A stretch of 64,000 nt of DNA from an uncultured Bacilli bacterium (GTDB lineage Bacteria > Bacillota_I > Bacilli_A > RF39 > UBA660), in contig OZ006970.1 of assembly GCA_963931065.1 (NCBI GenBank), positions 293,498 through 357,497 of the forward strand, read 5' to 3'. The translations under genes were made by a program, and so were the position numbers. How positions within the stretch are numbered: the first letter of the stretch is position 1; the number at the start of each line of letters is the position of its first letter. The notes under the pieces are model-generated. The model worked only from the letters and a program-made list of their open reading frames with translations, was not told the origin of the DNA and searched no databases. This document shows, piece by piece, positions 3,267 to 64,000 of the stretch.

Positions 3267-4214
3267 TTAATTTAAACTATTACCTTTAACTGCATCTAAA
3301 TCAACCCTAATAGCTATACCTTTATCAAAGCTCTTAGGAAGACCCTTATTAAGCAAAATACTATCTTTCTGTATTTCATAACTACTATCTATTCCATTTA
3401 ATTCAAGAACACTAGGATCAACGCTTTGTTGATAATCAGTATCTTCACTTGGTCTTAGTAAAAATTCACTATTATGAATATCAACATATTTTAATGAATC
3501 ATTATATCTAGCTAATCCAGTCAAAATATCAATAGTAAAAGATTTACCTCCTACCTCATATGCATCTTTATTATAATCATATAAATATTTATTTTCTGGT
3601 ATAGCAATAGTAACATTAGGCATAATTTGATCTCCTACTGCCTTTTCAATATTTGAAGGAATTAAAACCGGTTCAGCAACTTCCTTATCATAAACACCTT
3701 TTTGAAGGTTACAACTAAAAGCTTCTTTCATTCCAATAGCAAGTAAATCAGCATGATTATTACCTTTATTATAATTACCAATTACTTTATAATCATCACC
3801 TTCATAATTAGTTAATGCTACAAAACACTCTGTACCATCTTTATTTAATTCATTTATATCTCTAACTTCAACATCAAGACCTGTTGCCGCTAAAGTACTC
3901 TCTGCCTGTTCCATTTGTTCACTACTAATACCATCATTAACAAGAACAACATTAAGAGTTGATAAATCTTCTACACTAGTATCAATAGTATATGAATCTT
4001 CAACAGTAGTAGAAACATCCACTGTTTTCTCATCAGATTTATCTAAAAAATTCTTACATCCAACAATACCTAAACCAACTACTCCAGCAGTAAGCGCAGT
4101 AACACTTCCTCTTACTAGCATTCTTTTAATATATAAATTTCTCTTCTTCCTTTTTCTAGCTTCTCTTATCATCTCAGGAGTAACTCTAAAATTATCAATT
4201 CTTTTATCACTCAT
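3267..4214 (-). CDS. Hypothetical membrane-anchored protein: a basic cytoplasmic N-terminus, one TM helix, then an extracytoplasmic domain.
   Basis: 315-aa ORF with a KRKKRN-rich N-terminus followed by a hydrophobic segment (VTALTAGVVGLGIVG). I recognise no family. Confidence 0.45.
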   Translation of the reverse strand: MSDKRIDNFRVTPEMIREARKRKKRNLYIKRMLVRGSVTALTAGVVGLGIVGCKNFLDKSDEKTVDVSTTVEDSYTIDTSVEDLSTLNVVLVNDGISSEQMEQAESTLAATGLDVEVRDINELNKDGTECFVALTNYEGDDYKVIGNYNKGNNHADLLAIGMKEAFSCNLQKGVYDKEVAEPVLIPSNIEKAVGDQIMPNVTIAIPENKYLYDYNKDAYEVGGKSFTIDILTGLARYNDSLKYVDIHNSEFLLRPSEDTDYQQSVDPSVLELNGIDSSYEIQKDSILLNKGLPKSFDKGIAIRVDLDAVKGNSLN

Positions 4215-41758: not shown

Positions 41759-42481
41759 TCACACAGTAATAACTAAATTAGATTTTAAATAATTAATAAT
41801 CGTATCTTTTAAATCAGTAATTTCCACATCTAGCCAATTATTTTTTCTATTACTCATTGTTTTTATATAGTTCTTATCTGATAATACATTATTAACAACC
41901 TTAATAAGTTTTTCCAAAGAATCAATGTCATTTATCCTATGACTAAAAACCTTTTTATTCAAAATCTTAACAACTTTACTACTATCAATATTACCATTTT
42001 TTATTAGCCAATATAAATCATAAAAATCTTTATACCGTGTAGATAGCAATCCAAATTTAATAACTGGAATAAGCTTTTCAACAAAAATTTGTTCTTTAGA
42101 ATTAACCATCAATAATATTCTTTGATTTTCTATACAAGAATCAAAATAGAACTCATCTTGAGCAATATCAAATTCAGTATTAACACCAACATCAATTTTT
42201 GCAGTAATTTCATTACCAAAATTATCTCTTATTATTAATGGAATACGTTTACCCTTATAATCCTGATGGTTTAAATTTACAATTTTCCCCTTATCAACAA
42301 TAATATCAATGCCATTCATTTTATAAGAAGTAAAAATATTATATAAATTATCATCTGATAAAAATATTCTTATTAAATCCAAATCAATATCAATAGTAGC
42401 ACGTCTAATATTATTTGATAGATTATACATTACTATGCCACCTTTAATTGTTATATTATTTTTATACTCCAATTTAAACAA
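41759..42481 (-). CDS. AbiEii/AbiGii-family nucleotidyltransferase, a type IV toxin of an abortive-infection TA pair. The frame stays open upstream without an ATG, so the true start may lie near 42616.
   Basis: An IDIDLDL nucleotidyltransferase-like motif and DUF1814-type architecture. Its in-frame upstream extension overlaps the abiEi stop. Confidence 0.55.
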   Translation of the reverse strand: MFKLEYKNNITIKGGIVMYNLSNNIRRATIDIDLDLIRIFLSDDNLYNIFTSYKMNGIDIIVDKGKIVNLNHQDYKGKRIPLIIRDNFGNEITAKIDVGVNTEFDIAQDEFYFDSCIENQRILLMVNSKEQIFVEKLIPVIKFGLLSTRYKDFYDLYWLIKNGNIDSSKVVKILNKKVFSHRINDIDSLEKLIKVVNNVLSDKNYIKTMSNRKNNWLDVEITDLKDTIINYLKSNLVITV

Positions 42482-42579: not shown

Positions 42580-43140
42580 CTAAAGTACTTCCTCTTGTAT
42601 TATTTTCAAATATTTATCTTTACTTTTAAAATTACTAAGATACTCTTGTATTTTTAAAAGATTTAATTCGTCAACAATTAATCTATAATTATTAATAATT
42701 TCTTTATACATATCATAGGACATATTATTTTTATTTCTAACCAATTCTATCAACATCCTTTCTTTATCATATATTTTTATTCTAACATTATCATAATATA
42801 TATAAGTTATTCCGATATTAAAATATCTATCATCCATAAAAGTTTGAATAATTCTATCATCTTTTATTTTTCTAGCTTTCTTCTTAGTTGATAAATAATA
42901 TTTATTTGGAATATTATCAGTAAGTCCATAATAATAAAATGCACTATCAGAATTAAATACAGCATTATCATATTTCTTAGTTATAAATTCTAGTTCAGAA
43001 CATCTTGAATCAAAAGAGTAAAATCCACACTCTAATTTAAATAATCTCTTTTCGTTTAATGCCACTTTTATTTTTTTATCAGTATTAAACTTTTCATTTT
43101 TTAACAATTCACTATATCTATACAACATTCTACCCACCAA
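42580..43140 (-). CDS. AbiEi-family antitoxin/transcriptional regulator.
   Basis: 186 aa with an N-terminal wHTH-like region. It sits directly upstream of the AbiEii-like gene and is coupled to it. An inverted repeat (GTCGGA...TCCGAC) lies in its promoter region at about 43160-43192. Confidence 0.5.
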   Translation of the reverse strand: MVGRMLYRYSELLKNEKFNTDKKIKVALNEKRLFKLECGFYSFDSRCSELEFITKKYDNAVFNSDSAFYYYGLTDNIPNKYYLSTKKKARKIKDDRIIQTFMDDRYFNIGITYIYYDNVRIKIYDKERMLIELVRNKNNMSYDMYKEIINNYRLIVDELNLLKIQEYLSNFKSKDKYLKIIQEEVL

Positions 43141-50255: not shown

Positions 50256-51170
50256 TTAATTATATCTTTTTCCATTAACTAGAGGCTTTAAAACTCTAAC
50301 CTTAATATTAGGAATATCTATCTTAGGAATAGAATCAATATTTATATTCTCAAAAAGATTAATTTTATCCAATAACTCTTTATCAATACTTTTCTTTAAT
50401 ATATTAAATAATTCTACTTCATTAAGACTATACAAATCATCATAAGTAATATAACCCTTATCAATAGATAGTTTTGTTATATTAGCAAGCAAGTGCATCA
50501 TATAATTATCTTCATTAGTATGACAATACAAATCTATACTTTCACTAACATCTATTATTTTAGAAACAATATCTCTATTATTAAAACCAATCTCATCTTC
50601 ATTATCTTCATTTTTAAATACTCTAACATCATTAATAATTTTTTTAATATCATCTTTAGTAACATTTTTAGTCCATGCTATACCAGTTAAAATAACACCA
50701 TCTAACCTATCAGCACAACACTTTGGTCTATCGTTATCAACAATACTAAAGTTTTTAAAATTAATAATATTATCTACATCTATATTGTCTTCTTTTAAAC
50801 ACTTAAGCAAATACTTATCATTTTTAATAATATCTTCCGTAAGTTCTTCTGTGCTTTCTTGTTTTTCATAATCTTCATTCATATAATCTATAACATGAGA
50901 AAAACAAGGAGTTGCAACATCATGAAATAAAGCTGCTACAGTCATAGTCTTATCATTAGTTACTTTATAAGTTAATAAAGAAGTTGTTAGAGAATGATCA
51001 AACCTACTAATATATTCATCAAAATTATAAACACTTTTAGAAGCAAAATCCATTCCACAAAAATAACCAACACTCATCAATCTAACTAAAGAAGGACATT
51101 TAAGATATTTTTTAAGAAAAAATGGCATATCATTATAATCTAATTGCTCTAAATAATACTTTAATAACAT
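50256..51170 (-). CDS. HD-domain phosphohydrolase family protein.
   Basis: An AALFHDVATPCFSH (H...HD) motif. Confidence 0.65.
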   Translation of the reverse strand: MLLKYYLEQLDYNDMPFFLKKYLKCPSLVRLMSVGYFCGMDFASKSVYNFDEYISRFDHSLTTSLLTYKVTNDKTMTVAALFHDVATPCFSHVIDYMNEDYEKQESTEELTEDIIKNDKYLLKCLKEDNIDVDNIINFKNFSIVDNDRPKCCADRLDGVILTGIAWTKNVTKDDIKKIINDVRVFKNEDNEDEIGFNNRDIVSKIIDVSESIDLYCHTNEDNYMMHLLANITKLSIDKGYITYDDLYSLNEVELFNILKKSIDKELLDKINLFENINIDSIPKIDIPNIKVRVLKPLVNGKRYN

Positions 51171-51260
51171 ATAGAACCCTCCTTAAAAACATAATAACAT
51201 ATTTAATAATAATATACTACAAATTATCTTTTATTAAAATATTACTTATATATCTAAAAA

Positions 51261-51328
51261 TGCACAATATTTTAAAAATATTGTGCATTATATAAAATGA
51301 ATATGCTGTTTTGCACAATCATTGTGCA
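51261..51328. promoter_or_regulatory. Operator pair upstream of the HD-domain gene: a 13-1-13 perfect palindrome TGCACAATATTTT-A-AAAATATTGTGCA plus an 8-1-8 palindrome TGCACAAT-C-ATTGTGCA.
   Basis: Direct reading. The same pair, in the same order and spacing relative to the gene, sits upstream of fic at 52533-52600. Confidence 0.5.
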
Positions 51329-51337
51329 TTTATTACT

Positions 51338-52465
51338 TTATAATTCTCTTCCAACAAATACATTATATATCTCATTATATCTATAACTTAGCTTTGCATA
51401 AGTTGAATCTTGAACTAAAATTCCCATATCTACCAAATTATCTATAATGTTAGATACTGTATTCCTTGACACTCCTGATTCCTCCACTACTTCTTTCTTA
51501 GTAAAAACTACTTGTTTCATAATTACTGGCATTATTCTATATACAGCAGTACTATTTAATTCACTTATTCTTTCCATATCATTAATATAAATTTGTTTTA
51601 TTCTATTTATTTTTGCAATATAATTATTACATTGATCAATAATACATTGTAAGAAAAATTTTATAAAACCTAACATATTTCCTTTTCTACTCTCATTTAA
51701 ATATCTATAATAACTAGGTTTATATAATTCTATTATTTCAGATAAAAACAAAATAGGTTCATCTTCAGTAAGTATAGCCAACTGAATTGGAATTAATGCT
51801 CTACCTAATCTTCCATTACCATCACGATAAGCATGTATAGTTTCAAACTGAGAATGAGATATAGCCATATTAATAAATATAGGATCAATATAGGCATCAT
51901 TCATATATTGAAATAAATTATCTAATAATATAGGAACTTCTTCTGGTATAGGTGGAACAAATATAGCTTCATCAATAGTACATCCCTTAGGTCCCACCCA
52001 ATTTTGAACATCTCTAATCTTACCAGGCTCTTTTTCATTACCTCTAACACTATCTAATAAAATTTTATGAATAGTATTTACAAATTTAATATCAATTTTT
52101 TCTTGTTTTAAATAATCTTTTGCATACTCAATAACTTTTTTCAAATTTTGAATTTCTAAATTATCATCAGTTTTTGGCATATATTTCAAATAATACATTT
52201 CATCTTGAGAAATCTGCGTACCCTCAATTTGTGTAGACTTTAAACTTTCGCTCAATATGACTGAATCAAGAAAAAATTTTGAATCAAATTGACTATTTTT
52301 TAAATTTGATTTATATTCGCCGTATCTTTCATTAGCTTCTGAAATCAAATTTAGTAACTCTTTATCAATATTATATTTTATTGGTAACATATCAACTTTA
52401 ATTGGTTTCATAATAAGCCTCATTCCTTCCACTTCATTTAAGTCATACATAGCCATGAATAACAT
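51338..52465 (-). CDS. fic: Fic/DOC-family protein (AMPylase-type) with a C-terminal winged HTH.
   Basis: The HAYRDGNGRLGRAL Fic motif (HxFx(D/E)GNGRxxR) and a C-terminal wHTH-like region (VSRNTVSNIIDNLVDMGIL). Confidence 0.85.
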   Translation of the reverse strand: MLFMAMYDLNEVEGMRLIMKPIKVDMLPIKYNIDKELLNLISEANERYGEYKSNLKNSQFDSKFFLDSVILSESLKSTQIEGTQISQDEMYYLKYMPKTDDNLEIQNLKKVIEYAKDYLKQEKIDIKFVNTIHKILLDSVRGNEKEPGKIRDVQNWVGPKGCTIDEAIFVPPIPEEVPILLDNLFQYMNDAYIDPIFINMAISHSQFETIHAYRDGNGRLGRALIPIQLAILTEDEPILFLSEIIELYKPSYYRYLNESRKGNMLGFIKFFLQCIIDQCNNYIAKINRIKQIYINDMERISELNSTAVYRIMPVIMKQVVFTKKEVVEESGVSRNTVSNIIDNLVDMGILVQDSTYAKLSYRYNEIYNVFVGREL

Positions 52466-52532
52466 AATTACTTTTTCAAATTAATCATCTAGAAAAAGTT
52501 TAACATAATACAATACTTTTGTAAACAAAAAA

Positions 52533-52600
52533 TGCACAATATTTTGAAAACATTGTGCATTTTTGTCGAAAATTCCTAACTTTTGCACAATCACTATGCA
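52533..52600. promoter_or_regulatory. Operator pair upstream of fic, a near-identical copy of 51261-51328.
   Basis: TGCACAATATTTTGAAAACATTGTGCA and TGCACAATCACTATGCA. Confidence 0.5.
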
Positions 52601-52722
52601 TTTTTTACATTTTTCAGCATAAAGATGCTAAATAGTATTAAATCATTGTAAATGTCAATAACTTTTTGGACAAAAATGTCAATTTCAAAGTTGGACACTT
52701 TTATAATTAAGAGGGAGGAAAA

Positions 52723-53484
52723 TTACTCCCTCTTAAAATTATCTAGTTGTTCAATTTTATTCTTAATACGATATGAATTTCCTTTTATATTTATAACATG
52801 AGAATGATGTAATAATCTATCTAATATAGCATTTGCTAATATATTATCGCTAAATACTTCTCCCCATTCACTAAAAACCATATTGGTTGTTATTATTGTA
52901 GATCTTTTCTCATATCTTTTTGCTATTAATTGGAATAATAGATTAGCTCCTTGTTTATCTACCGGCAAATATCCAATTTCATCTATTATTAATAATTCAT
53001 ATCTACAAAAATGCTTTATTCTTGCTTCTAGTTTATTTTCAAAATGTGCTTTATTTAATTGTGTTATTAAATCATGACAACTTATAAAATATACCGAATA
53101 TCTTTTCTTTGCTGCTGTTATACCTAATGATATAGCTAGGTGTGTTTTACCAACACCTGAACTACCTACAAATAGTATATTTTCATGTTTTTCTAAAAAT
53201 CTCAATGTATTTAAATCTTCTATTTTTTCTTTATCTATTGATGGTTGATAATCAAAATCGAAATCTTTTAATTCTTTTTCATAAGGAAATGCTGATACTT
53301 TTATTTGTATTTTTGATGCTCTTTCATTTCTATATTCTATTTCCTTATTTGTTAATTCTAAAAATGCTTTTTGAAATGGTATTTTTTTACTTGTTATTTC
53401 CTCTAAATAATTGGGTAAATAACTTCTCATCTTTTCTAGCTTTAATATTTCTAAATTATTTAATATGTTATTATATTCATTCAT
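52723..53484 (-). CDS. istB: IS21-family helper ATPase IstB.
   Basis: An AAA+ P-loop GSSGVGKTHLA, a Walker B LLIIDEIGY and a DnaC-like fold. Confidence 0.85.
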   Translation of the reverse strand: MNEYNNILNNLEILKLEKMRSYLPNYLEEITSKKIPFQKAFLELTNKEIEYRNERASKIQIKVSAFPYEKELKDFDFDYQPSIDKEKIEDLNTLRFLEKHENILFVGSSGVGKTHLAISLGITAAKKRYSVYFISCHDLITQLNKAHFENKLEARIKHFCRYELLIIDEIGYLPVDKQGANLLFQLIAKRYEKRSTIITTNMVFSEWGEVFSDNILANAILDRLLHHSHVINIKGNSYRIKNKIEQLDNFKRE

Positions 53485-54709
53485 CTATTTTCACTCCTAA
53501 CAATATATCTTTTTTCTTTAATTCTATTATTTCTTGTATTTCTTCATCTGTTTTATTTCTATATGCTTCACTTTTCATTATTTCTTTTAAATCACTTTCA
53601 TGATAATTTAAATACTTATCACTTATCTCATGTTGGCAAACAAAATCTGTGATGTTATAATATATATTGATTCTGGAATCCATTTCTGATATAGTGACTT
53701 GTTTTCCTATCAGATATGTTGGAACTGAGTATTTTTTACCTTTATACGTTACCATAGATTCTTTTGATACTTTATAAGTTTTTTCGGGCTCATAATAGTT
53801 GATTAATCTATCCCATAACGGTAAAGGATTTAAATACTCTTTTTCTTTTTCATGAATTTTACTCGGAACTATATTTATTCCTTGAACTACTTCATTATTT
53901 ATATCTTCGTTTATTTCTTTTACTATTTCATCCAAATCTTCCCAAGTCTCGAATTCTTCATTATATGGTCTTAATCTTTCCATTATTCTAGCGAGTGTTT
54001 CTACTTTTCCTTTTGTTTTTGGCCTATATCCTACACAAGCGAGAGGAGTAAATCCAGCATCATTACTAAAGCTTTCAAATCTTTTATTAAATACTACTTT
54101 TGTAGTTGTAGTTCTTGCTTTATCTACTACTGTTTTCATATTATCAAACAATATTTCTTTAGGGCTACCATTAAAATAACCAAACGCACTAACCATACAT
54201 TTAAATAAAGTATTTTGATTTCTATCACTTGTAAGTTTAATGTATTTATATCTTGAATATCCCAAAATCATTAGAAATATATTTATTTCAAATACTTCGC
54301 CATATTTATTTACTAATCTCATAGACTCTTTCCAATCAACTTGAGCTTGTAATCCAGGCACTGTTTCAAATCTTATTGTTGCCTTTTTTATTTGTTCATT
54401 TTTATGTTCCTTTATATATTTCCTTACTATACCATATCCTCCAGTATATCCTTGCTTTTTAATGAATTTATAAACATTCATTCCTTTACTTCTGTATTTA
54501 TCTACTTTAGTATCAATTATTTCCTTATAAGGGTCTAGTTTACTAGTTCTAGTTGTTCTTTTTTTAGGTTTTGGATTTTTTAGTCTTTCTTCTCGATTAT
54601 ATATCGTTTGCCTAGAACATCCCATAATTCTTGCCATTTCACTTTTATTAATATTATCACCTCCAATTCTTATAATTTCATTTCTTACATCTTTTCTCAT
54701 TAAAATCAA
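53477..54709 (-). CDS. istA: IS21-family transposase IstA.
   Basis: An N-terminal HTH, then a DDE integrase core. It overlaps istB by 8 nt. Confidence 0.85.
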   Translation of the reverse strand: MILMRKDVRNEIIRIGGDNINKSEMARIMGCSRQTIYNREERLKNPKPKKRTTRTSKLDPYKEIIDTKVDKYRSKGMNVYKFIKKQGYTGGYGIVRKYIKEHKNEQIKKATIRFETVPGLQAQVDWKESMRLVNKYGEVFEINIFLMILGYSRYKYIKLTSDRNQNTLFKCMVSAFGYFNGSPKEILFDNMKTVVDKARTTTTKVVFNKRFESFSNDAGFTPLACVGYRPKTKGKVETLARIMERLRPYNEEFETWEDLDEIVKEINEDINNEVVQGINIVPSKIHEKEKEYLNPLPLWDRLINYYEPEKTYKVSKESMVTYKGKKYSVPTYLIGKQVTISEMDSRINIYYNITDFVCQHEISDKYLNYHESDLKEIMKSEAYRNKTDEEIQEIIELKKKDILLGVKIDE

Positions 54710-55033
54710 CTCCTTACTATCTTTGGAAAAGATAGTTTAATTGTATCAATTAATGAAAAAGAATTGGTACAAACTGTCCAATTTCTAGATTGACATTTTT
54801 GTCCAATTCCATATTAACATTTACAATCATTTCACAAAATCATTGCTTTAAGTTTGCTATTTTTAGATTTTTAATACATCAAGCTCATGTTTTTCTATAA
54901 TCTATTGCCATTTGATTATTTACAAATAATATTCAATTTAAATGTATTAAATATAATAAATTATATCAATTTATATTTCTTAGATTAAAATACTTTTTCA
55001 AACTCTTAAAACATATAAAAACGAACTATTACT

Positions 55034-55058
55034 AGTTCGAATAGATATCAATGTGGTG
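55034..55058. repeat. att-like repeat copy R1 (AGTTCGAATAGATATCAATGTGGTG), part of a 95-bp repeat unit (55033-55127). It is related to the sequence abutting the ssrA 3' end.
   Basis: On the minus strand it reads CACCACATTGATATCTATTCGAACT. Compare the ssrA 3' end plus flank, CTCCACCATTGGCGAATCTGTTCGAACTATTCGAACT. Confidence 0.5.
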
Positions 55059-55259
55059 CCGTTGAGGAAGTTATCTACAACTTATCGGTAATTTAATACA
55101 AGAAGCAATCACTATTTAAACTATAACATACACTCTTGAAATTTTATCAAAAACATTTCTTGTTCTCTTGTTTTATAAATATATTTATTATATAATTCTA
55201 ACAGGAACATTTGATGTGAGTGTCGTCCTCCAATCTTGAGAAAGAAAGGAGGGATAGAA

Positions 55260-55506: not shown

Positions 55507-55531
55507 TTAACTCATTAGTTCGAGTAAATAT
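55507..55531. repeat. att-like repeat copy R2 (AGTTCGAGTAAATATCAATCTGGTG), part of a 98-bp repeat unit (55506-55603) that is about 70% identical to 55033-55127.
   Basis: Direct comparison. The shared stretch TCTACAACTT...CAATCACTA continues beyond the core. Confidence 0.5.
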
Positions 55532-55699
55532 CAATCTGGTGCGAGTGTCGTAGTAGTCTACAACTTTCTCTAGAGACGATTGGTATAAAAATCAATCACT
55601 AAATATAGTTTACCATCAAAAGAAAAAAGTAGCAATAATTTTGTGCTACTTATTAACCATTTTTAATTTAATTTCACTTGTTTAATTTTTAATCAAAAA

Positions 55700-56728: not shown

Positions 56729-58117
56729 TTAAATTTCTAAATCAAAATCATCTTTATCTTTATTATCGTGTTCTTTACTGAATACATAAGTATCTTTTAA
56801 ATCCTCAAATGTTTCATCACTAATAATACCTTTTGAGTATAAATCAATAGATACATCTCTATATTTATCTCGTACTTTTCCTCTATCAAAGAGTTTATCA
56901 CTAATAAGATTAATAACACTTAAAAACTTATCTTTCCAAAATTCTAGCTTTTCTCTTAATGAATAATTTTCTTCTTCTAATTCTTTAATTTCTTTAGTTT
57001 TACTTTTAAGGTTTTTAGTTAGAGTTTCTACTCTTAAAGATAAAGCATTATTATTTTCAGTTAGTACCTTAATCTTCTCACGATTTTCTTTTAATTCTTC
57101 ATGTACATTATTTAACGTAACAGACAAAGTTTGTATATTTTTATATTCATTATTTGTTTTATCAACTTTATCTATGAAAGTAATAAGTTTATCTTTATCT
57201 TCTTGCTTTAAAACATATTTATCTTTATTGATTATAGTAGTCTTTAAATTATCAACTATATTCTTAACTTCTTTAGAATTATTATCTAACTCTAAAGACT
57301 TTTTATTTACTATTTCTAATTTTGTTTGATTTTTGGATAGTTCTTGTTTCATAGTTTGATAATTAGTCATATCAGAAACATGAATATCACGATTTCTTCC
57401 TTTTAATTTTTTCTTTAAAGAGTTATTTAGATTATATTCTTTATTAAATGATTCAATACAAAGTATTCTCATTTTATCCTGTAATTTTGTTAAAGACTCT
57501 TTTGTAAACACATCAGACTTTCCAACTTGTTTAGACATACCATTTTTGTTTTTATATTTAATTGGGACTCCTACAATATGAAGATGTGGACTTGTTTCGT
57601 CATAATGAATAATAGCACTAGCTATTTTAAAGTTAGGTAACATTGTTTCTAAATCATCAACTTGGTCTTTATAAACAGAAGTCATACGTTTTTTAAAATC
57701 TAAATCTTTGGTATCCCAATATTTCTTATCTCCAAGTTCAATAATAATCTCACAAGCTAAATCATTTTTTTCATTATTACTGATATTAGTAAAGTAGTCA
57801 TTTATCTTTCTATTTTCTCTAGTTTGTTTAGCATTATATTCAAGTCGTGCTTCTTCAAATTCTTCTTTATATAAATTTCTAACATCATCATACAAAGAAG
57901 AAGTACCTTTTATGATTTCGATATTGTCTTGATCGTTATCATACTTTCTATAATTATGCTTATCTACTCGAGATAAACCTCGTGCATTTTGTATTGCATT
58001 ATTACTCATAGACGTAGAGCCACTTTTATTTGTTTTAGCACTTTTTCTAACATTATTCTTTTTATTTTTATCACTACCCAAATGTAGTGAATAAGCAAGT
58101 TCAGACATATAAATCAC
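56729..58117 (-). CDS. MobV-family (Mob/Pre) relaxase for plasmid or ICE mobilization.
   Basis: The HxDE..PHxH motif (IIHYDETSPHLHIVGVP) and a long C-terminal coiled coil. Confidence 0.7.
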   Translation of the reverse strand: MIYMSELAYSLHLGSDKNKKNNVRKSAKTNKSGSTSMSNNAIQNARGLSRVDKHNYRKYDNDQDNIEIIKGTSSLYDDVRNLYKEEFEEARLEYNAKQTRENRKINDYFTNISNNEKNDLACEIIIELGDKKYWDTKDLDFKKRMTSVYKDQVDDLETMLPNFKIASAIIHYDETSPHLHIVGVPIKYKNKNGMSKQVGKSDVFTKESLTKLQDKMRILCIESFNKEYNLNNSLKKKLKGRNRDIHVSDMTNYQTMKQELSKNQTKLEIVNKKSLELDNNSKEVKNIVDNLKTTIINKDKYVLKQEDKDKLITFIDKVDKTNNEYKNIQTLSVTLNNVHEELKENREKIKVLTENNNALSLRVETLTKNLKSKTKEIKELEEENYSLREKLEFWKDKFLSVINLISDKLFDRGKVRDKYRDVSIDLYSKGIISDETFEDLKDTYVFSKEHDNKDKDDFDLEI

Positions 58118-58329
58118 GCTCCTTTCTTTAAAAATTATTTTGTTATGACAAAATATTTAACCCCCTAGGCATTTTGACGCATGGCATCAAAATAACCTCG
58201 TGGTCTAGGGATTCCCTAGAACCCATTTCTTTATTTCATATTGTTTTAAAACTTCATAATAAAACAAAATTACATAAAGCATTGATGAAAATATTTTATT
58301 GTCATAAAACATTTTCTTTGTAAAAATCT

Positions 58330-60285
<1,956 letters not shown>

Positions 60286-60499
60286 TTATCATCTCCCTTT
60301 TCAAAAAAAGAGGAGTCAAAACCACTAGCATACAACTAATATTTTTAACTCCTCTAATAAACTATTTAAGTTTTTATATAAATCTAATTTGTAAGTTTTA
60401 ACCATAGAGTACCTACTTTCTAATAAAAGACGGATACTGCTTGTCATTTATTGACGAATATAATACAACTTTTTATTTGATTTGTCTAGTATATGAGTA

Positions 60500-60784
60500 T
60501 TAGTTAATGCTTTTGATATAGTTTTCAAGTTCTGATAGTTTAATCTTTTTGCTCAAATTATTGATATAGATTTCATTTGAATAATTAATAGCAAGAAATA
60601 GATTATCTTTAATGATTATTCTATGTGGCTCAATGTATGATAAATTTGTCTTATCAATCTTTCTAATACTACCATTTATAATAGTTGGAGTAGTATTACA
60701 AAAATCACAAATAATTTCTAATCTCTTTCTTAAAGATTCTTCCATATCAATTTCAATTTTCTTTACATTAATCATAGACACCAA
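60500..60784 (-). CDS. Hypothetical small protein, the first gene after the ssrA terminator.
   Basis: 94-aa ORF. I recognise no family. Confidence 0.35.
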   Translation of the reverse strand: MVSMINVKKIEIDMEESLRKRLEIICDFCNTTPTIINGSIRKIDKTNLSYIEPHRIIIKDNLFLAINYSNEIYINNLSKKIKLSELENYIKSIN

Positions 60785-60811
60785 CCTTTCTTTCGATTAG
60801 TTTTTTATATA

Positions 60812-60838
60812 AAACGAAAAAACCAATCATTTCTGATT
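60812..60838 (-). terminator. Rho-independent terminator of ssrA.
   Basis: On the minus strand, CAATCAGAAATGATTG is followed by GTTTTTT. Confidence 0.6.
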
Positions 60839-60873
60839 GATTCTTTATATCAAAAGTTCGAATAGTTCGAACA

Positions 60874-61264
60874 GATTCGCCAATGGTGGAGATGAGGAGA
60901 TTCGAACTCCTGTCCAAAAATAAAGCTACATAAACTTCTACAAGTTTAGATGATTAAGAAACTTCAAACTATTTTCTAGTAACCATCAACTAATAAAATA
61001 GTTCTAGTCTAAAAAATTCCGTCATAGCCTAGACAAACTACAACTATATCCTGCTAAAATAAACCATCTTAACTTAACACAGGAAATTAAGAGAAGACAG
61101 TGCATTTACCTTTTACTAGGCGAAAGCTAACTCAGTATTTTTATTAAATAAGTTAGCAAATGCTGTTTTAATACTGTTTCCAGCTATTTTAATTTAGTTT
61201 GTAACGTAAACAACTCGACTTGCCATTTATGCTCTATTATTCCTGTCGAAACCAAAGCATCCCC
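60874..61264 (-). ncRNA. ssrA: Transfer-messenger RNA (tmRNA, SsrA).
   Basis: The 5' end GGGGATGCTTTGGTTTCGACAGG and the 3' end GGACAGGAGTTCGAATCTCCTCATCTCCACCA match the tRNA-Ala-like tmRNA ends. An internal in-frame tag ORF ends ...NLFNKNTELAFA before a stop. It sits directly downstream of smpB. Confidence 0.85.
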
Positions 61265-61323
61265 AAATACACCTAGATTATATCATAGAAGTATCAAAAA
61301 AGCAAATACCAATAATTACCAAA

Positions 61324-61761
61324 CTATTTATATTTATTAAATTTAGCAGCTTCCCTCTTTAAATCTCTTTCTTTAATACTTTCTCTTTTATCATAGTTTT
61401 TCTTACCCTTACATAACCCAAGTTCTATCTTCGCTTTACCACGTACAAAGTATAGTTTTAAAGGAATAAGAGTATAGCCCTCTAATTTAAGTTTATTATC
61501 TAACTTTTTAATTTCACTTTTATGAAGTAATAACTTTCTACTTCTTGTCTCTTCATGATTAAAGATATTACCTTCCTTATAATGGTCTATAAACATATTA
61601 ACAAGATAAACTTCTCCACTTCTTATAATAGCATAACTATCTTTAATAGAAGCCTTGCCAAGCCTTATAGACTTAATCTCTGTTCCTTTTAAAACAATAC
61701 CTGCTTCATATGTATCTTCAATAAAATAATCAAACTTAGCACGTCTATTAATAATCTCCAT
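61324..61761 (-). CDS. smpB: SsrA-binding protein.
   Basis: Conserved SmpB sequence (NRRAKFDYFIEDTYEAGIVLKGTEIKSIR...). The start is at MEII, which follows a GGAGTG RBS. Confidence 0.9.
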   Translation of the reverse strand: MEIINRRAKFDYFIEDTYEAGIVLKGTEIKSIRLGKASIKDSYAIIRSGEVYLVNMFIDHYKEGNIFNHEETRSRKLLLHKSEIKKLDNKLKLEGYTLIPLKLYFVRGKAKIELGLCKGKKNYDKRESIKERDLKREAAKFNKYK

Positions 61762-61765
61762 AATA

Positions 61766-62950
61766 TCACTCCAAACTAGGCATTTCAATTCTATTATCAA
61801 GAGATAACACTATATTTTTATATGTCTCATAATAATTTTTATAACCAGGTAACAAATCATCATTTAAACTAGTATAAGGATAAACAACAAAGCCTCTCTT
61901 TCTTCCATAAGTAGAATATGTATATAAAAGTTCTGCTTTAGGATTTTTTAACTCTATTGTACTGACACCATTTTCCACAGTTTTGTGGATATCTATACTT
62001 GCCATTAATCCTGTAAGACGTTCTACTCCTTCTTGATCAGATATAAAATTACCTAATGAATATATTACCATAGTATTATTAATAAAGGCAATGGGTTCTA
62101 CTACATGAGGATGACTTCCAATAATAATATCAACACCAAGACTAGATAAGTAGTTAGCAATCTCTTGTTGTGAGGCACTAATACTAGTAGAATATTCTGT
62201 TCCCCAGTGCATCGCTACAATCACAACATCTACATTATCGCGAACTTTTTCAATATCAGCTTTCGCTTTCTCGGGACTATAAACATTATTTAAATATTCC
62301 TTACCACTAGGTGTCTCTAAACCATTAGTCCAAGTTGTATAAGAAAAGAATGAATAAGTAATACCATTAATTTCTTTAATAACCATCTTATCCCTATCAT
62401 CAAAAGATAAATAACTCCCAGCCGTATAAATATCATCTTTACTATTCCAATAGTTTAAAGAGTTAATTACACCTTGTTCTCCTTTATCCATAGTATGATT
62501 TGTTGCAAGACTAACTAAGTTAAATCCTGCATCAATAAAGGCATCTCCTACCTCATAAGGAGAGTTAAATCTAGGATAATTAGATAATCCTAACTCAGTA
62601 CCACCTAATATTGTCTCTTGATTATAATACTTTAAATCATAATCTTGAATAAGAGGTTTAATCTCACTTAACATAGGCTTAAAATCATAACCACTACCAG
62701 TATAAGCATCAGTATATATAGTACTATGGATTAAAGCATCTCCTACCATCACTAAAGACGCATCCATTTCTTCTTTCTTACTAACTACTTCTTCTTCCTT
62801 TTTTTGTTCTTTTACATCATCTTTTTTAACATTATCAGTACTAAGACGATAATAAAATCCTAAACTAATACCAAATAAAGTACCAATAAAAACAATAATA
62901 ACAAAACGTCCTAATACTGTTAATTTTCTCCTCTTCTTTATTTTACTCAT
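61766..62950 (-). CDS. CapA/PgsA-family metallophosphatase-like membrane protein, linked to poly-gamma-glutamate or capsule synthesis.
   Basis: An N-terminal TM helix, then the CapA-family motifs (GDALIHS..., NLVSLATNHTMDKG, AMHWGTEYS, GSHPHVVEP). Confidence 0.7.
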   Translation of the reverse strand: MSKIKKRRKLTVLGRFVIIVFIGTLFGISLGFYYRLSTDNVKKDDVKEQKKEEEVVSKKEEMDASLVMVGDALIHSTIYTDAYTGSGYDFKPMLSEIKPLIQDYDLKYYNQETILGGTELGLSNYPRFNSPYEVGDAFIDAGFNLVSLATNHTMDKGEQGVINSLNYWNSKDDIYTAGSYLSFDDRDKMVIKEINGITYSFFSYTTWTNGLETPSGKEYLNNVYSPEKAKADIEKVRDNVDVVIVAMHWGTEYSTSISASQQEIANYLSSLGVDIIIGSHPHVVEPIAFINNTMVIYSLGNFISDQEGVERLTGLMASIDIHKTVENGVSTIELKNPKAELLYTYSTYGRKRGFVVYPYTSLNDDLLPGYKNYYETYKNIVLSLDNRIEMPSLE

Positions 62951-62951
62951 C

Positions 62952-64000
62952 TTACAACTTCTTAACAATCTCAAAATCAATAGTCTTCGCTTCTTTAGAA
63001 GCTGCCACTACTTTAACTAAGACCCTTTCTCCTATAGTATATTTAATATGACTCCTCTCCCCTACTAAAGTAAGTCTTTCTTCATCAAAAGTAAAATAAT
63101 CATCCATAAGTCTAACAGGAACAAGTCCTTCTACTAAGTTATCAAGTTCTACAAACATACCAAAACTCATAACAGATGAGATCATACCTTCAAACTCTTC
63201 ACCAATATGACTTTCCATATATTCAGCCATCTTCATATCCTCAACTTCTCTTTCACAGTCAACAGATGCTCGCTCCATCGCTGATGAATGATCTGCTACA
63301 AACACTAATTTTTCTTCATAATGATTAATAGTATGACTACTTAAATCATGATTAAATAAGTAAGTTCTAAGAAGTCTATGTACAGTAGTATCAGGATAAC
63401 GTCTAATAGGTGAAGTAAAATGTGTATAACAACCACTACCTAAACCAAAATGTCCAAGATTAGTAGGAGAATATATAGCCTTTTGCATACATCTAAGTAA
63501 TAATGATGTAAGTACTTGTCCTTCTTTCTTATCTTTAACAAACTTAAGTAATTTTTGAACAGCTTTACTCTTATTACCTTTCAAGTCCCCAGTTACTTGA
63601 TAACCAAGATTACTAACAAAACCTAAGAAATCTCTAATTTTTTCTTCCTTAGGACTTTCATGAATACGATAAATAAATGGTAAATCCATATTATATATAT
63701 GAGTAGCCACACACTCATTAGCAGCGATCATAAAGTCTTCGATTAAGTTCTCACCAGTACCTCTATCTCTTTTCGTAATTTCATAAGGAACACAAGCCTC
63801 ATCTACAAGTATTTTCGCTTCATCAACATCAAAATCTAAGTAACCTCTTTCTACTTTAGCTTTTCTAAGTATAGTAGCAAATTCATTCATAGTCTTTAAA
63901 TCAGAAACAAACTCTTCATAACCATCTGGTATAACATTTTTCTCTAATATACTATTAACATTTTTATAAGTCATTTGCTTCCTTGACCTAATTACACTAG
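62952..64000 (-). CDS. rnr: Ribonuclease R, C-terminal part. The 5' end runs past the window end.
   Basis: An RNB motif HFGLGSGCYTHFTSPIRRYPD and a C-terminal S1 domain. The frame is open to the last base of the window. This is the conserved rnr-smpB-ssrA arrangement. Confidence 0.8.
   Translation of the reverse strand, partial: SVIRSRKQMTYKNVNSILEKNVIPDGYEEFVSDLKTMNEFATILRKAKVERGYLDFDVDEAKILVDEACVPYEITKRDRGTGENLIEDFMIAANECVATHIYNMDLPFIYRIHESPKEEKIRDFLGFVSNLGYQVTGDLKGNKSKAVQKLLKFVKDKKEGQVLTSLLLRCMQKAIYSPTNLGHFGLGSGCYTHFTSPIRRYPDTTVHRLLRTYLFNHDLSSHTINHYEEKLVFVADHSSAMERASVDCEREVEDMKMAEYMESHIGEEFEGMISSVMSFGMFVELDNLVEGLVPVRLMDDYFTFDEERLTLVGERSHIKYTIGERVLVKVVAASKEAKTIDFEIVKKL

Follow-up and report, generated by a model that had tools for sequence, protein, structure and literature searches.

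Paired palindromes bracketing a SoFic-like fic gene form a probable operator array in gut Bacilli

We found that the fic gene in the window (the whole stretch of DNA analysed, 64 kb in length) is bracketed by two modules of about 84 bp, each consisting of a 17-bp palindrome, a spacer of 23-25 nt and a 27-bp palindrome on the minus (coding) strand. One module is located upstream of fic, the other between fic and an HD-domain gene. The SoFic-like Fic protein, whose gene lies between the two modules, probably uses each of them as an operator array, as suggested by linkage and by analogy with characterised Fic proteins. The module accompanies fic in some 80 genomes of gut bacteria, which makes it most likely that Fic controls its own expression at this site through its DNA-binding tail. 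Autoregulation by Fic is the most likely reading also because the protein has a predicted C-terminal winged helix and the related proteins CccR and SoFic bind their own promoters. Self-regulation of this kind is known; the layout of the sites is new and unusually regular.

Paired palindromes in the window

In the second module the distal 17-bp palindrome (51312-51328, minus strand, TGCACAATCATTGTGCA) is a perfect 8-1-8 repeat and the proximal 27-bp palindrome (51261-51287, minus strand, TGCACAATATTTTAAAAATATTGTGCA) a perfect 13-1-13 repeat. In the fic-upstream module the 17-mer (52584-52600, minus strand, TGCACAATCACTATGCA, in gene orientation TGCATAGTGATTGTGCA) shows two mismatches to the consensus TGCACAATnATTGTGCA, and the 27-mer (52533-52559, minus strand, TGCACAATATTTTGAAAACATTGTGCA), which is flanked by an A-run and a T-run, differs from its counterpart by one arm mismatch and the centre base. 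With these differences, both palindrome pairs reported in the initial annotation are present where it had located them. Both fic and the HD-domain gene are encoded on the minus strand, with the 17-mer distal and the 27-mer proximal to the gene in each case. The offset between the two copies is 1272 nt for both palindromes, so that their order and internal spacing are identical, while the sequence of the inter-palindrome spacer has diverged.

The earlier description of the same order in both places is borne out by this shared offset, but the distances to the start codons, which had been called similar, differ: counted from the 27-mer, the HD-domain gene starts after 90 nt, and fic after 67 nt if its first in-frame ATG (52465) is taken. 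Taking instead the start shared with homologues (MKPIKV, 52411), which follows a ribosome-binding site (GGAATGAGG), the distance for fic is 121 nt. In most homologues the 27-mer is 45-57 nt away from the fic start, and the window lineage has about 66 nt extra. The 17-mer of the second module begins 9 nt past the fic stop codon.

A chance origin of the modules is excluded: the exact half-site word TGCACAAT occurs seven times in the 64-kb window (1.1 expected), all seven inside the two modules, and the 27-mer pattern was matched twice with an expectation of 0.00. Position weight matrices derived from other genomes gave the same picture. Both 27-mers score 38-43 bits, the next best site in the 64 kb reaching -6.8 bits, and the 17-mers score 20-32 bits with a next best site of 4.4. 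Within the fic-upstream module the 17-mer obtains 24.2 of 32.1 bits and the 27-mer 38-40 of 44.7 bits; the 17-mer of the second module obtains the full 32.1 of 32.1 bits.

The fic gene, its promoter and its product

The fic gene (51338-52411, minus strand) was assigned to the class II Fic proteins of the SoFic type from matches to Pfam Fic (E=2.4e-16) and Fic_N (E=3.4e-12), to the PADLOC SoFic model (E=2.6e-87, positions 12-357 of 361, i.e. end to end) and to the PDB entries 7cb8 and 3eqx (SoFic). The entry 7xux, possibly CccR, matched only with E=2e-07. Starting at the upstream in-frame ATG would lengthen the protein by 18 residues. Against the NCBIfam SoFic equivalog NF046030 it reaches 94.5 bits and thus stays below the cut-off of 550; judged by its sequence, it is a family member and a distant relative of the characterised SoFic, not an equivalog. 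Fic proteins of the SoFic type are AMPylases with toxic activity, and reports describe them as anti-phage systems made up of a single gene.

The active-site motif HxFx(D/E)GNGRxxR is present as HAYRDGNGRLGR, with Y replacing F, and residues H193, D197, G198, N199, G200, R201 and R204 are invariant in both alignments (A1 and A2). The N-terminal inhibitory motif (S/T)xxxE(G/N) is found as S59-TQI-E63-G64 and is likewise invariant. Regarding the C-terminus, residues 315-353 give weak matches to Pfam TrmB and HTH_IclR, and the alignment to the wHTH region of SoFic in 3eqx extends to residue 334. The AlphaFold model has a mean pLDDT of 50.9 (shallow alignment), with values of 74-91 only for residues ~260-340. 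Residues 290-343 show the helix-strand-helix-helix-strand-strand topology of a wHTH domain, so the C-terminus is modelled as a winged helix with a confident topology.

A putative fic promoter, recognised by its match to the consensus only, is located at 52497-52525 (minus strand) and consists of a -35 box TTTACA, a 17-nt spacer and a TG-extended -10 box TAAACT. The predicted -35 box begins 6-7 nt beyond the 27-bp palindrome. In fic-upstream modules of other genomes the pattern TTTAC[AT]-17-TGnTAnAAT is kept at a fixed distance after the 27-mer.

Association of the module with fic in public genomes

Public genomes were scanned with a pattern in which part of the 27-mer sequence was fixed, which matched at least 120 blocks of 8 kb. 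Conservation at the outer positions of the 27-mer is partly due to this ascertainment, while the inner 11 positions and the whole 17-mer lie outside the pattern, and modules were kept only if the 17-mer had ≤3 mismatches to the consensus. At least 92 full modules were found in 79 of the 120 blocks listed, mostly from metagenome-assembled genomes of gut Bacilli, and the gap of 24-25 nt between the palindromes is fixed. Among the matches listed there are 1-3 modules per 8-kb block. A SoFic-like fic gene lies within 250 nt of 64 of these 92 modules, 14 are clearly solo and 14 are too near the block end, which gives a fic-adjoining share of 82% (64/78) of the judgeable modules listed. The 27-mer is located directly upstream of fic in about 50 homologous loci among these matches. 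The genomic contexts of the fic-module loci are otherwise unrelated (beside a tRNA gene, near smpB, on various contigs).

Among the matches listed there are 55 distinct fic 3' flanks; in about 20 of these a second module begins within 0-24 nt of the stop codon, and about 30 listed fic loci carry the upstream module only. The genes that follow the second module vary and encode rubredoxin-like, NUDIX, XRE-type HTH, ABC ATPase, radical SAM, DUF421 and other proteins. In the window this position is taken by the HD-domain gene (50256-51170, minus strand, 304 aa, Pfam HD E=4.7e-07). Only two modules upstream of an HD homologue were found among the matches listed. In one of these two cases (L117), module and gene are 516 nt apart with a 149-aa ORF in between; a third HD homologue, in L092, is preceded by a 27-bp palindrome alone, at a distance of about 1 kb. 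In neither L117 nor L092 is a module directly in front of the gene. A scan for consensus promoters found no convincing promoter after the HD-side module at the position used by the fic promoters. The small regulon of HD phosphohydrolase plus Fic that the initial annotation had proposed is weakly supported, and not in the form proposed, as the second module follows fic whatever gene comes next. A coherent regulon was also rejected more generally, the genes downstream of non-fic modules being heterogeneous and mostly singletons. We propose that the second copy belongs to the fic unit and not to the HD-domain gene. The neighbours of solo modules are unrelated housekeeping genes (among them class I Glu/Gln tRNA synthetase, TatD, Fur, HIGH nucleotidyltransferase, peptidase M20).

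On plasmids and phages we found no close relatives, only homologues of ≤35% identity. Four such loci were examined, of which only the one from E. eligens has repeated upstream boxes (GAAATTTCAT); in the other three the candidates were terminators of the upstream genes.

Operator layout in distant Fic clades

Distant Fic-wHTH homologues (26-49% identity) were compared at 66 loci. The 150 nt in front of the gene contain a long, AT-rich inverted repeat in 45% of them, versus 1.4% in shuffled controls and 0% in fic coding sequence. These palindromes are clade-specific in sequence with a modal length of 32 bp. In locus L135, whose protein is 49% identical to that of the window, the predicted recognition helix reads HINTIQ instead of SRNTVS and the half-sites are A/C-CACAAT. 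Despite the changed half-sites a long/short/long layout is retained, and the proximal palindrome extends into the -35 region. The candidate operator hence changes along with the Fic protein.

Long and short palindromes with spacers differing by exactly 10 bp and left edges 41-42 bp apart are present in at least five clades, represented by the window, L135, L137, L160 and L172. An automated search for two inverted pairs was noisy from register slips. In a half-site-anchored test used in its place, the histogram has its maxima at spacer differences of -10 (five loci, L186 being dubious) and 0 (four loci). The use of one half-site at two different spacings, which the initial annotation had singled out as unusual, was described correctly and recurs in other Fic clades.

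These clades bear on the alternative that the modules are operators of another transcription factor encoded elsewhere, with fic simply as its most frequent target. It would account for the 14 clear solo modules beside non-fic genes among the matches listed, and the short palindrome of L135 (ACACAATGAATTGTGA) resembles an NrdR box. We nevertheless consider it unlikely, since fic is the only gene that consistently adjoins the module across differing contexts, and since distant fic clades have different palindromes in the same layout, i.e. the site changes with Fic. NrdR boxes, which precede ribonucleotide reductase genes as 16-bp palindromes in tandem (acaCwAtATaTwGtgt), share the CACAAT core but were rejected, as the spacer of the 17-mer is 1 bp and not 2 bp, the second element is a 27-mer and no nrd gene is present beside the modules whose neighbours were examined.

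Presence and absence of the fic cassette

Two pairs of loci differ by fic together with one module: L115 corresponds to L011, and L117 to the window, in each case minus fic and one module. The junction in L115 is located inside the 27-bp palindrome. In several genomes the modules flanking fic are more alike than modules are between genomes. Such a pattern could be expected if the modules were att-like sites of a small mobile fic cassette moved by a site-specific recombinase, regulation being secondary, and in the window a large serine recombinase, a Mob relaxase and an IS21 element are indeed near the locus. However, no recombinase is consistently linked to the modules and none is near loci L001-L009, about 30 listed fic loci have no downstream partner for their upstream module, and the junction falls where the repeats are identical over the greatest length, which is also where ordinary homologous recombination would cross over. 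We therefore regard att-like sites as quite unlikely. As operator arrays of Fic, the two direct repeats could serve as recombination substrates as well, and solo modules may be what is left after loss of fic and one module. The locus comparison shows the toxin gene to be a presence/absence cassette, bracketed by what are probably its own operators, which may explain the turnover of such genes in defence islands.

Sequence constraint and RNA pairing

Across 98 distinct modules, conservation of the half-site cores amounts to ~95-100%, while the centre bases carry only 0.04-0.16 bits. No compensatory changes between the arms were found in these modules, with 0-1 alternative Watson-Crick pairs per position, and the observed arm pairing equals that expected for independent columns. 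The non-Watson-Crick arm pairs comprise 89 true mismatches versus 36 G-U pairs on the sense strand. Because changes in the arms are never compensated, the constraint is on the sequence and not on hairpin pairing. In agreement with the first interpretation of the palindromes, the conserved half-sites and uninformative centres thus point to predicted protein-binding operators instead of chance repeats or hairpins.

It is very unlikely that the palindromes act mainly as RNA, insulating the toxic fic gene from its surroundings or terminating transcription intrinsically in both directions. The 27-mer of the second module would fold into a 14-bp hairpin followed by UUUUU (-14.2 kcal/mol, z = -4.8) with an A-run on the other side, and about 20 of the 55 listed 3' flanks have a module that begins shortly behind fic, as would suit a terminator. 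Yet single-arm changes are frequent and mostly break the pairing, the same half-site is kept in palindromes of unequal stem length, and the hairpin of the 17-mer would be weak (-7.2 kcal/mol, z = -1.6), with A residues rather than U behind it. For lack of covariation we rejected the hairpin or terminator as the main function; the 27-mer may act as a terminator in a secondary role.

A REP- or MITE-like dispersed repeat without specific tie to fic is highly improbable, since despite solo copies beside unrelated genes the window holds only two copies with a negative next best 27-mer score, 82% of the judgeable modules listed adjoin fic, and the palindromes are conserved while the internal spacer is not. 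The initial annotation had itself stated that copies of a dispersed repetitive element at many unrelated loci would refute its interpretation; this applies in part, as the 14 clear solos do lie at unrelated loci, yet with 1-3 copies per 8-kb block among the matches listed the module is not a high-copy element.

Proposed autoregulation by Fic

We infer the regulator from linkage and analogy. Out of the candidates considered initially, i.e. the C-terminal wHTH of Fic itself or another repressor, the former is the best one, given the 64 of 78 judgeable modules (matches listed) that adjoin a SoFic-like fic gene and the precedent of CccR and SoFic. Fic would dimerise via its N-terminal helix, and the recognition helix in its C-terminal winged helix (residues ~316-328, in which SRNTVS is invariant in the clade) would read the half-sites, TGCAC(AAT). 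In the 27-bp palindrome the TGCAC cores are 22 bp apart (~75 Å) and would be on one face of the DNA, which would fit the distance of ~70 Å in the CccR dimer. In the 17-bp palindrome the cores are 12 bp apart, exactly one helical turn less, and the left edges of the palindromes are 41-42 bp or about four turns apart. All four half-sites would thereby face roughly the same side of the DNA, which suggests cooperative binding by more than one dimer. The stoichiometry is speculative because one rigid dimer cannot fit both spacings.

Occupancy of the array at fic most likely represses the gene, so that a toxic enzyme would hold down its own expression as CccR does; this sign is an extrapolation, and activation would be conceivable too because the array lies upstream of the -35 box and not over the core promoter. 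The second module may aid repression via looping, may end fic transcription by its hairpin and U-run, and may put the next gene under incidental control.

As a tentative extension, SoFic-like Fic-wHTH proteins from many phyla may share an undescribed operator grammar, with a higher-order Fic complex (e.g. a dimer of dimers) assembling on one face of the DNA. In gut Bacilli a second array might let this complex loop out the toxin gene, and solo modules could be decoys or couplers. The operators could also set the activity of Fic, because in relatives DNA binding controls the dimer state and the balance between AMPylase and deAMPylase. If true, this grammar would pair a long with a short inverted repeat, both built from one half-site; their spacers would differ by exactly one helical turn, and half-sites of like orientation would be spaced by about four turns.

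Comparison with known systems

The Fic toxin CccR of Yersinia pseudotuberculosis represses its own promoter, with its C-terminal HTH dimer on an inverted repeat, according to the available text of PMC9755527. As described there, CccR likewise belongs to the class II Fic proteins, its inhibitory motif being N-terminal and its HTH C-terminal. Both have inverted repeats in the promoter region of their own gene, in the window the 27-mer and 17-mer directly upstream of the predicted fic promoter. The DNA-binding helices of CccR are 70 Å apart and its half-sites widely spaced (PMC9755527, available text), and wide spacing is found here too. In contrast, the CccR operator described in the same text is a single pair of 10-bp repeats with a 26-bp spacer near the -35/-10 boxes, whereas the window has four 8-bp half-sites that make up two palindromes of 17 and 27 bp; 24-25 bp separate these two, and the predicted -35 box follows downstream. 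The spacers within these palindromes are 1 and 11 bp, which differs from the single-pair 10-bp/26-bp layout. The half-site sequences are unrelated, and in the window the complete array is repeated behind the gene. The window protein comes from the low-GC genome of a gut member of the Bacilli, whereas CccR is a T6SS effector in a proteobacterium.

SoFic (MloA) of Shewanella oneidensis has the same domain architecture, and the window protein matches the corresponding PADLOC model over its full length. [quoted passage not shown] With 94.5 versus 550 bits the window protein is distant from SoFic, and a role in defence or EF-Tu AMPylation is only putative for it. CbFic2 of Coxiella burnetii, also a Fic-wHTH enzyme, binds DNA via its C-terminal HTH, and binding induces dimerisation and switches the enzyme activity; its target is a host histone, and the available text gives no specific DNA motif or own-promoter site (PMC10628234). 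The candidate sites in the window, in contrast, are highly sequence-specific and attached to the own gene. Autoregulated operators of type II/IV toxin-antitoxin systems (e.g. AbiEi) offer a further analogy, as there a wHTH protein encoded in the module holds down the toxin on inverted repeats of the own promoter. Here, however, the toxin itself carries the DNA-binding domain, and a separate antitoxin gene appears to be absent; for EcSofic a small antitoxin, AS1, has been reported (PMC12249575). For CccR, autoregulation by the wHTH has been demonstrated, and for SoFic it has been suggested; the available texts on both describe no general operator logic. The window locus and its about 90 relatives would provide a precise candidate operator for a large uncultured gut lineage, namely TGCACAAT half-sites arranged as 8-1-8 and 8-11-8 palindromes with a gap of 24-25 bp and ending just upstream of the -35 box. 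The helix-phased long/short layout, occurring with other half-sites in distant clades, could serve as DNA substrate for structural work on Fic-DNA complexes.

The IS21 element upstream of fic

An IS21-family element with istA and istB (52647-54825, minus strand; Pfam rve, Mu-transpos_C_2 and IstB_IS21; terminal inverted repeats) is inserted 46 nt upstream of the fic module, with nt 52601-52646 in between, and is not part of the module. The 5-bp target duplication ATCAT is present at 52642-52646 and 54826-54830. We rejected the terminal repeats of this element as source of the fic-side palindromes: it has its own inverted repeats, ends at 52647 next to the ATCAT duplication, and the module is intact in locus L082, which represents an empty site.

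Two palindromic modules bracket fic

Both fic (51338-52411, or to 52465, minus strand) and the HD-domain gene downstream of it (50256-51170, minus strand) are preceded, in gene orientation, by a 17-bp palindrome TGCACAAT-n-ATTGTGCA, a spacer of 24-25 nt and a 27-bp palindrome TGCACAAT-n11-ATTGTGCA. In the HD-side module (minus strand; 17-mer 51312-51328, 27-mer 51261-51287) both palindromes are perfect; the fic-side module (minus strand; 17-mer 52584-52600, 27-mer 52533-52559) is less regular: its 17-mer carries two mismatches and its 27-mer a single one, within the arms. Both palindromes show a common offset of 1272 nt between the copies, and the intervening spacer has diverged. The window contains seven TGCACAAT words (1.1 expected), all of them inside the two modules, and with matrices trained on other genomes the window's 27-mers score 38-43 bits, against -6.8 for the runner-up anywhere in the 64 kb. 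The shared offset, the word count and the matrix scores confirm the paired palindromes that the initial annotation had placed upstream of both genes, and the feature is real and conserved. On its plus strand the whole window has an extreme, skewed base composition (A 37%, T 36%, C 16%, G 10%), and genes in the second half are mostly on the minus strand.

Distribution of the module

Gut metagenomes contain many close Fic homologues (78-93% identity), and three genomic contexts unrelated to one another have the same module directly upstream of fic. Scanning one genome per species for the pattern gave at least 120 8-kb blocks. The full module is present in 79 of the 120 listed, almost all of them MAGs of uncultured Bacilli, "Tenericutes" and Erysipelotrichaceae; many of the others are unrelated GC-cored hairpins from other phyla, and in some a true 27-bp palindrome is present and the distal element is variant, incomplete or absent. 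Among the matches listed, 64 of 92 modules have a SoFic-like fic gene no more than 250 nt away, 14 are clear solos without adjacent fic, and 14 are too close to a block end to judge. In modules upstream of fic the 27-mer is followed after 6-7 nt by a conserved promoter (TTTAC[AT], 17 nt, TGnTAnAAT), and the spacer contains phased A-tracts.

Variant arrays were noted among the homologous loci L022 (1911-2030), L024 (7308-7426), L089, L125 and L050, either as 27-mer, 17-mer and 27-mer with a shared central 17-mer or as tandem 17-mers repeating every 42 nt ahead of the 27-mer; extension of the module is therefore possible in steps of about four helical turns. In the P0115 context (locus L009 versus L006, about 3780-3900) the fic module lies directly beside the 3' end of a tRNA gene. 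At that position a partial tRNA repeat is all that L009 carries, with ParA/ParB genes ahead of it, a pattern suggesting that an element has integrated at this tRNA.

Predicted autoregulation by Fic

The window Fic contains a Fic_N domain, with STQIEG as inhibitory motif and HAYRDGNGRLGR as Fic motif. Its match to the PADLOC SoFic model (E=2.6e-87) runs from one end to the other, and solved structures of SoFic and Fic-wHTH proteins match as well. Because the protein falls far under the cut-off of the NCBIfam equivalog for SoFic of S. oneidensis, it belongs to the SoFic family as a distant relative. Its structure model is poor overall and confident only for the C-terminal winged helix (residues ~290-343), with residues 316-328 as recognition helix.

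The Fic-HTH toxin CccR of Yersinia pseudotuberculosis represses its own promoter, its dimer binding 10-bp inverted repeats 26 bp apart with DNA-binding helices separated by 70 Å (PMC9755527). SoFic is described as binding the 100 bp immediately upstream of its own gene, solely as a dimer, with no motif defined in that description (bioRxiv 10.64898/2026.07.09.737422), and DNA-induced dimerisation is described as a switch in CbFic2 of Coxiella burnetii (PMC10628234). The toxic EcSofic is kept in check by a small antitoxin (PMC12249575). With 64 of the 92 listed modules beside fic and the precedent of CccR and SoFic, autoregulation through the C-terminal wHTH, a candidate already named in the initial annotation, is the best reading, and the module is best read as a predicted self-operator of SoFic-like Fic. 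This kind of control is already known; new are the bipartite, helically phased layout and the two copies bracketing fic.

The TGCAC cores of the 27-mer lie 22 bp apart (~75 Å), which would fit one N-terminally dimerised Fic, and those of the 17-mer 12 bp apart, one helical turn less. Because like-oriented half-sites are spaced by about four turns, all sites would face one side of the DNA, a layout that suggests cooperative assembly of more than one Fic dimer just upstream of the -35. Such occupancy would most likely repress fic, and the downstream array may contribute through looping or termination, or by placing the following gene under incidental control.

A comparison of 98 distinct modules shows almost no variation in the TGCAC cores, 1.2-1.7 bits at the inner ATTTT/AAAAT positions and next to nothing at the centre bases. 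Each position has 0-1 alternative Watson-Crick pairs, pairing is as frequent as it would be if the columns were independent, and non-Watson-Crick pairs are mostly true mismatches. It is therefore the sequence that is constrained, as would be expected of a protein-binding site. Since the 27-mer as RNA is predicted to form a hairpin (-14.2 kcal/mol) followed by U5, a secondary terminator role is possible for the copy after fic.

Distant Fic-wHTH homologues (26-49% identity) were compared at 66 metagenomic loci. Of these loci, 45% have an inverted repeat, long and AT-rich, within 150 nt upstream of the start, against 1.4% in shuffled sequence and 0% in fic coding sequence; these repeats are clade-specific in sequence, with a modal length of 32 bp. 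Locus L135 (49% identity) has the layout long, short, long palindrome, with half-sites A/C-CACAAT and an altered recognition helix. The window, L135, L137, L160 and L172 each combine a long with a short inverted repeat built on one half-site, with a spacer difference of exactly 10 bp and left edges 41-42 bp apart. In a half-site-anchored test (small sample, preliminary) the commonest spacer difference was -10, and near-perfect second pairs occurred only at -10 or 0.

The second module and gain or loss of fic

Of 55 distinct fic 3' flanks, ~20 have a module in the same orientation starting 0-24 nt after the stop codon, and the second module looks like a 3' companion of fic. The genes that follow vary (rubredoxin-like operon, NUDIX, XRE-type HTH, ABC ATPase, radical SAM, DUF421), and solo modules neighbour class I tRNA synthetase, TatD, Fur, HIGH nucleotidyltransferase and peptidase M20 genes. 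Because an HD gene follows the module in only two of the loci listed and the other 3' genes are heterogeneous, the small regulon of HD and Fic that had been proposed is a weak candidate. In L117 the HD gene lies 516 nt from the module with another ORF between; L092 has only a 27-mer, ~1 kb upstream of HD. The Ca. Onthousia faecigallinarum contexts (L001-L005, about 893-1156 or 1491-1754) carry, upstream of fic, an 89-aa ORF that is 84% identical to the start of the window HD protein and is apparently a truncated HD gene remnant.

Locus L115 is 98% identical to L011 across the left flank, 17-mer, spacer and 27-mer of the fic-upstream module of L011, and then, allowing for indels, follows the right flank of the downstream module of L011; exactly fic and one module are thus missing from L115, and the junction falls within the 27-mer. 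By eye and by blastn segments L117 and the window seem to show the same relation; ungapped identity figures for this pair do not show it, because the module gaps differ (24 versus 25 nt). The direct repeats thus mediate gain or loss of fic, by homologous or site-specific recombination, the data fitting either.

Surroundings of the locus

A complete IS21-family element of 2179 bp (52647-54825; termini TGTAAATG...CATTTACA; istA 53477-54709 and istB 52723-53484, both minus strand) lies upstream, flanked by the 5-bp target duplication ATCAT. As source of the palindromes it was ruled out: 46 nt (52601-52646) separate it from the fic-side module, and locus L082 has the uninterrupted, empty site. Beyond it are a Mob_Pre relaxase (56729-58117), a large serine recombinase (58330-60282) and the tmRNA gene (60884-61264, minus strand) with smpB, so the locus probably lies within a mobilisable island integrated beside ssrA. 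The gene order across 56729-63974 is rnr fragment, PGA_cap, smpB, tmRNA and then directly a 94-aa ORF, the recombinase and the relaxase. In the Ca. Onthousia loci L002-L005 fic likewise lies ~3 kb downstream of smpB.

The window, L010 and L082 carry ~66 extra nt (region 52412-52496) between the conserved fic promoter plus old ribosome-binding site and the MKPIKV start; these nucleotides supply an in-frame ATG further upstream, at 52465, as well as a new ribosome-binding site, GGAATGAGG. A 51-nt direct repeat (55033-55083 and 55516-55566, 78% identity) occupies part of the gap that separates the IS21 element from a 319-aa ORF; a related stretch in L082 resembles the 3' part of a tRNA gene, and ARAGORN found no tRNA at the repeat in the window. 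Upstream of an AbiEii-type nucleotidyltransferase toxin gene (41759-42481), a 186-aa ORF (42580-43140) with no Pfam match may encode the partner antitoxin.
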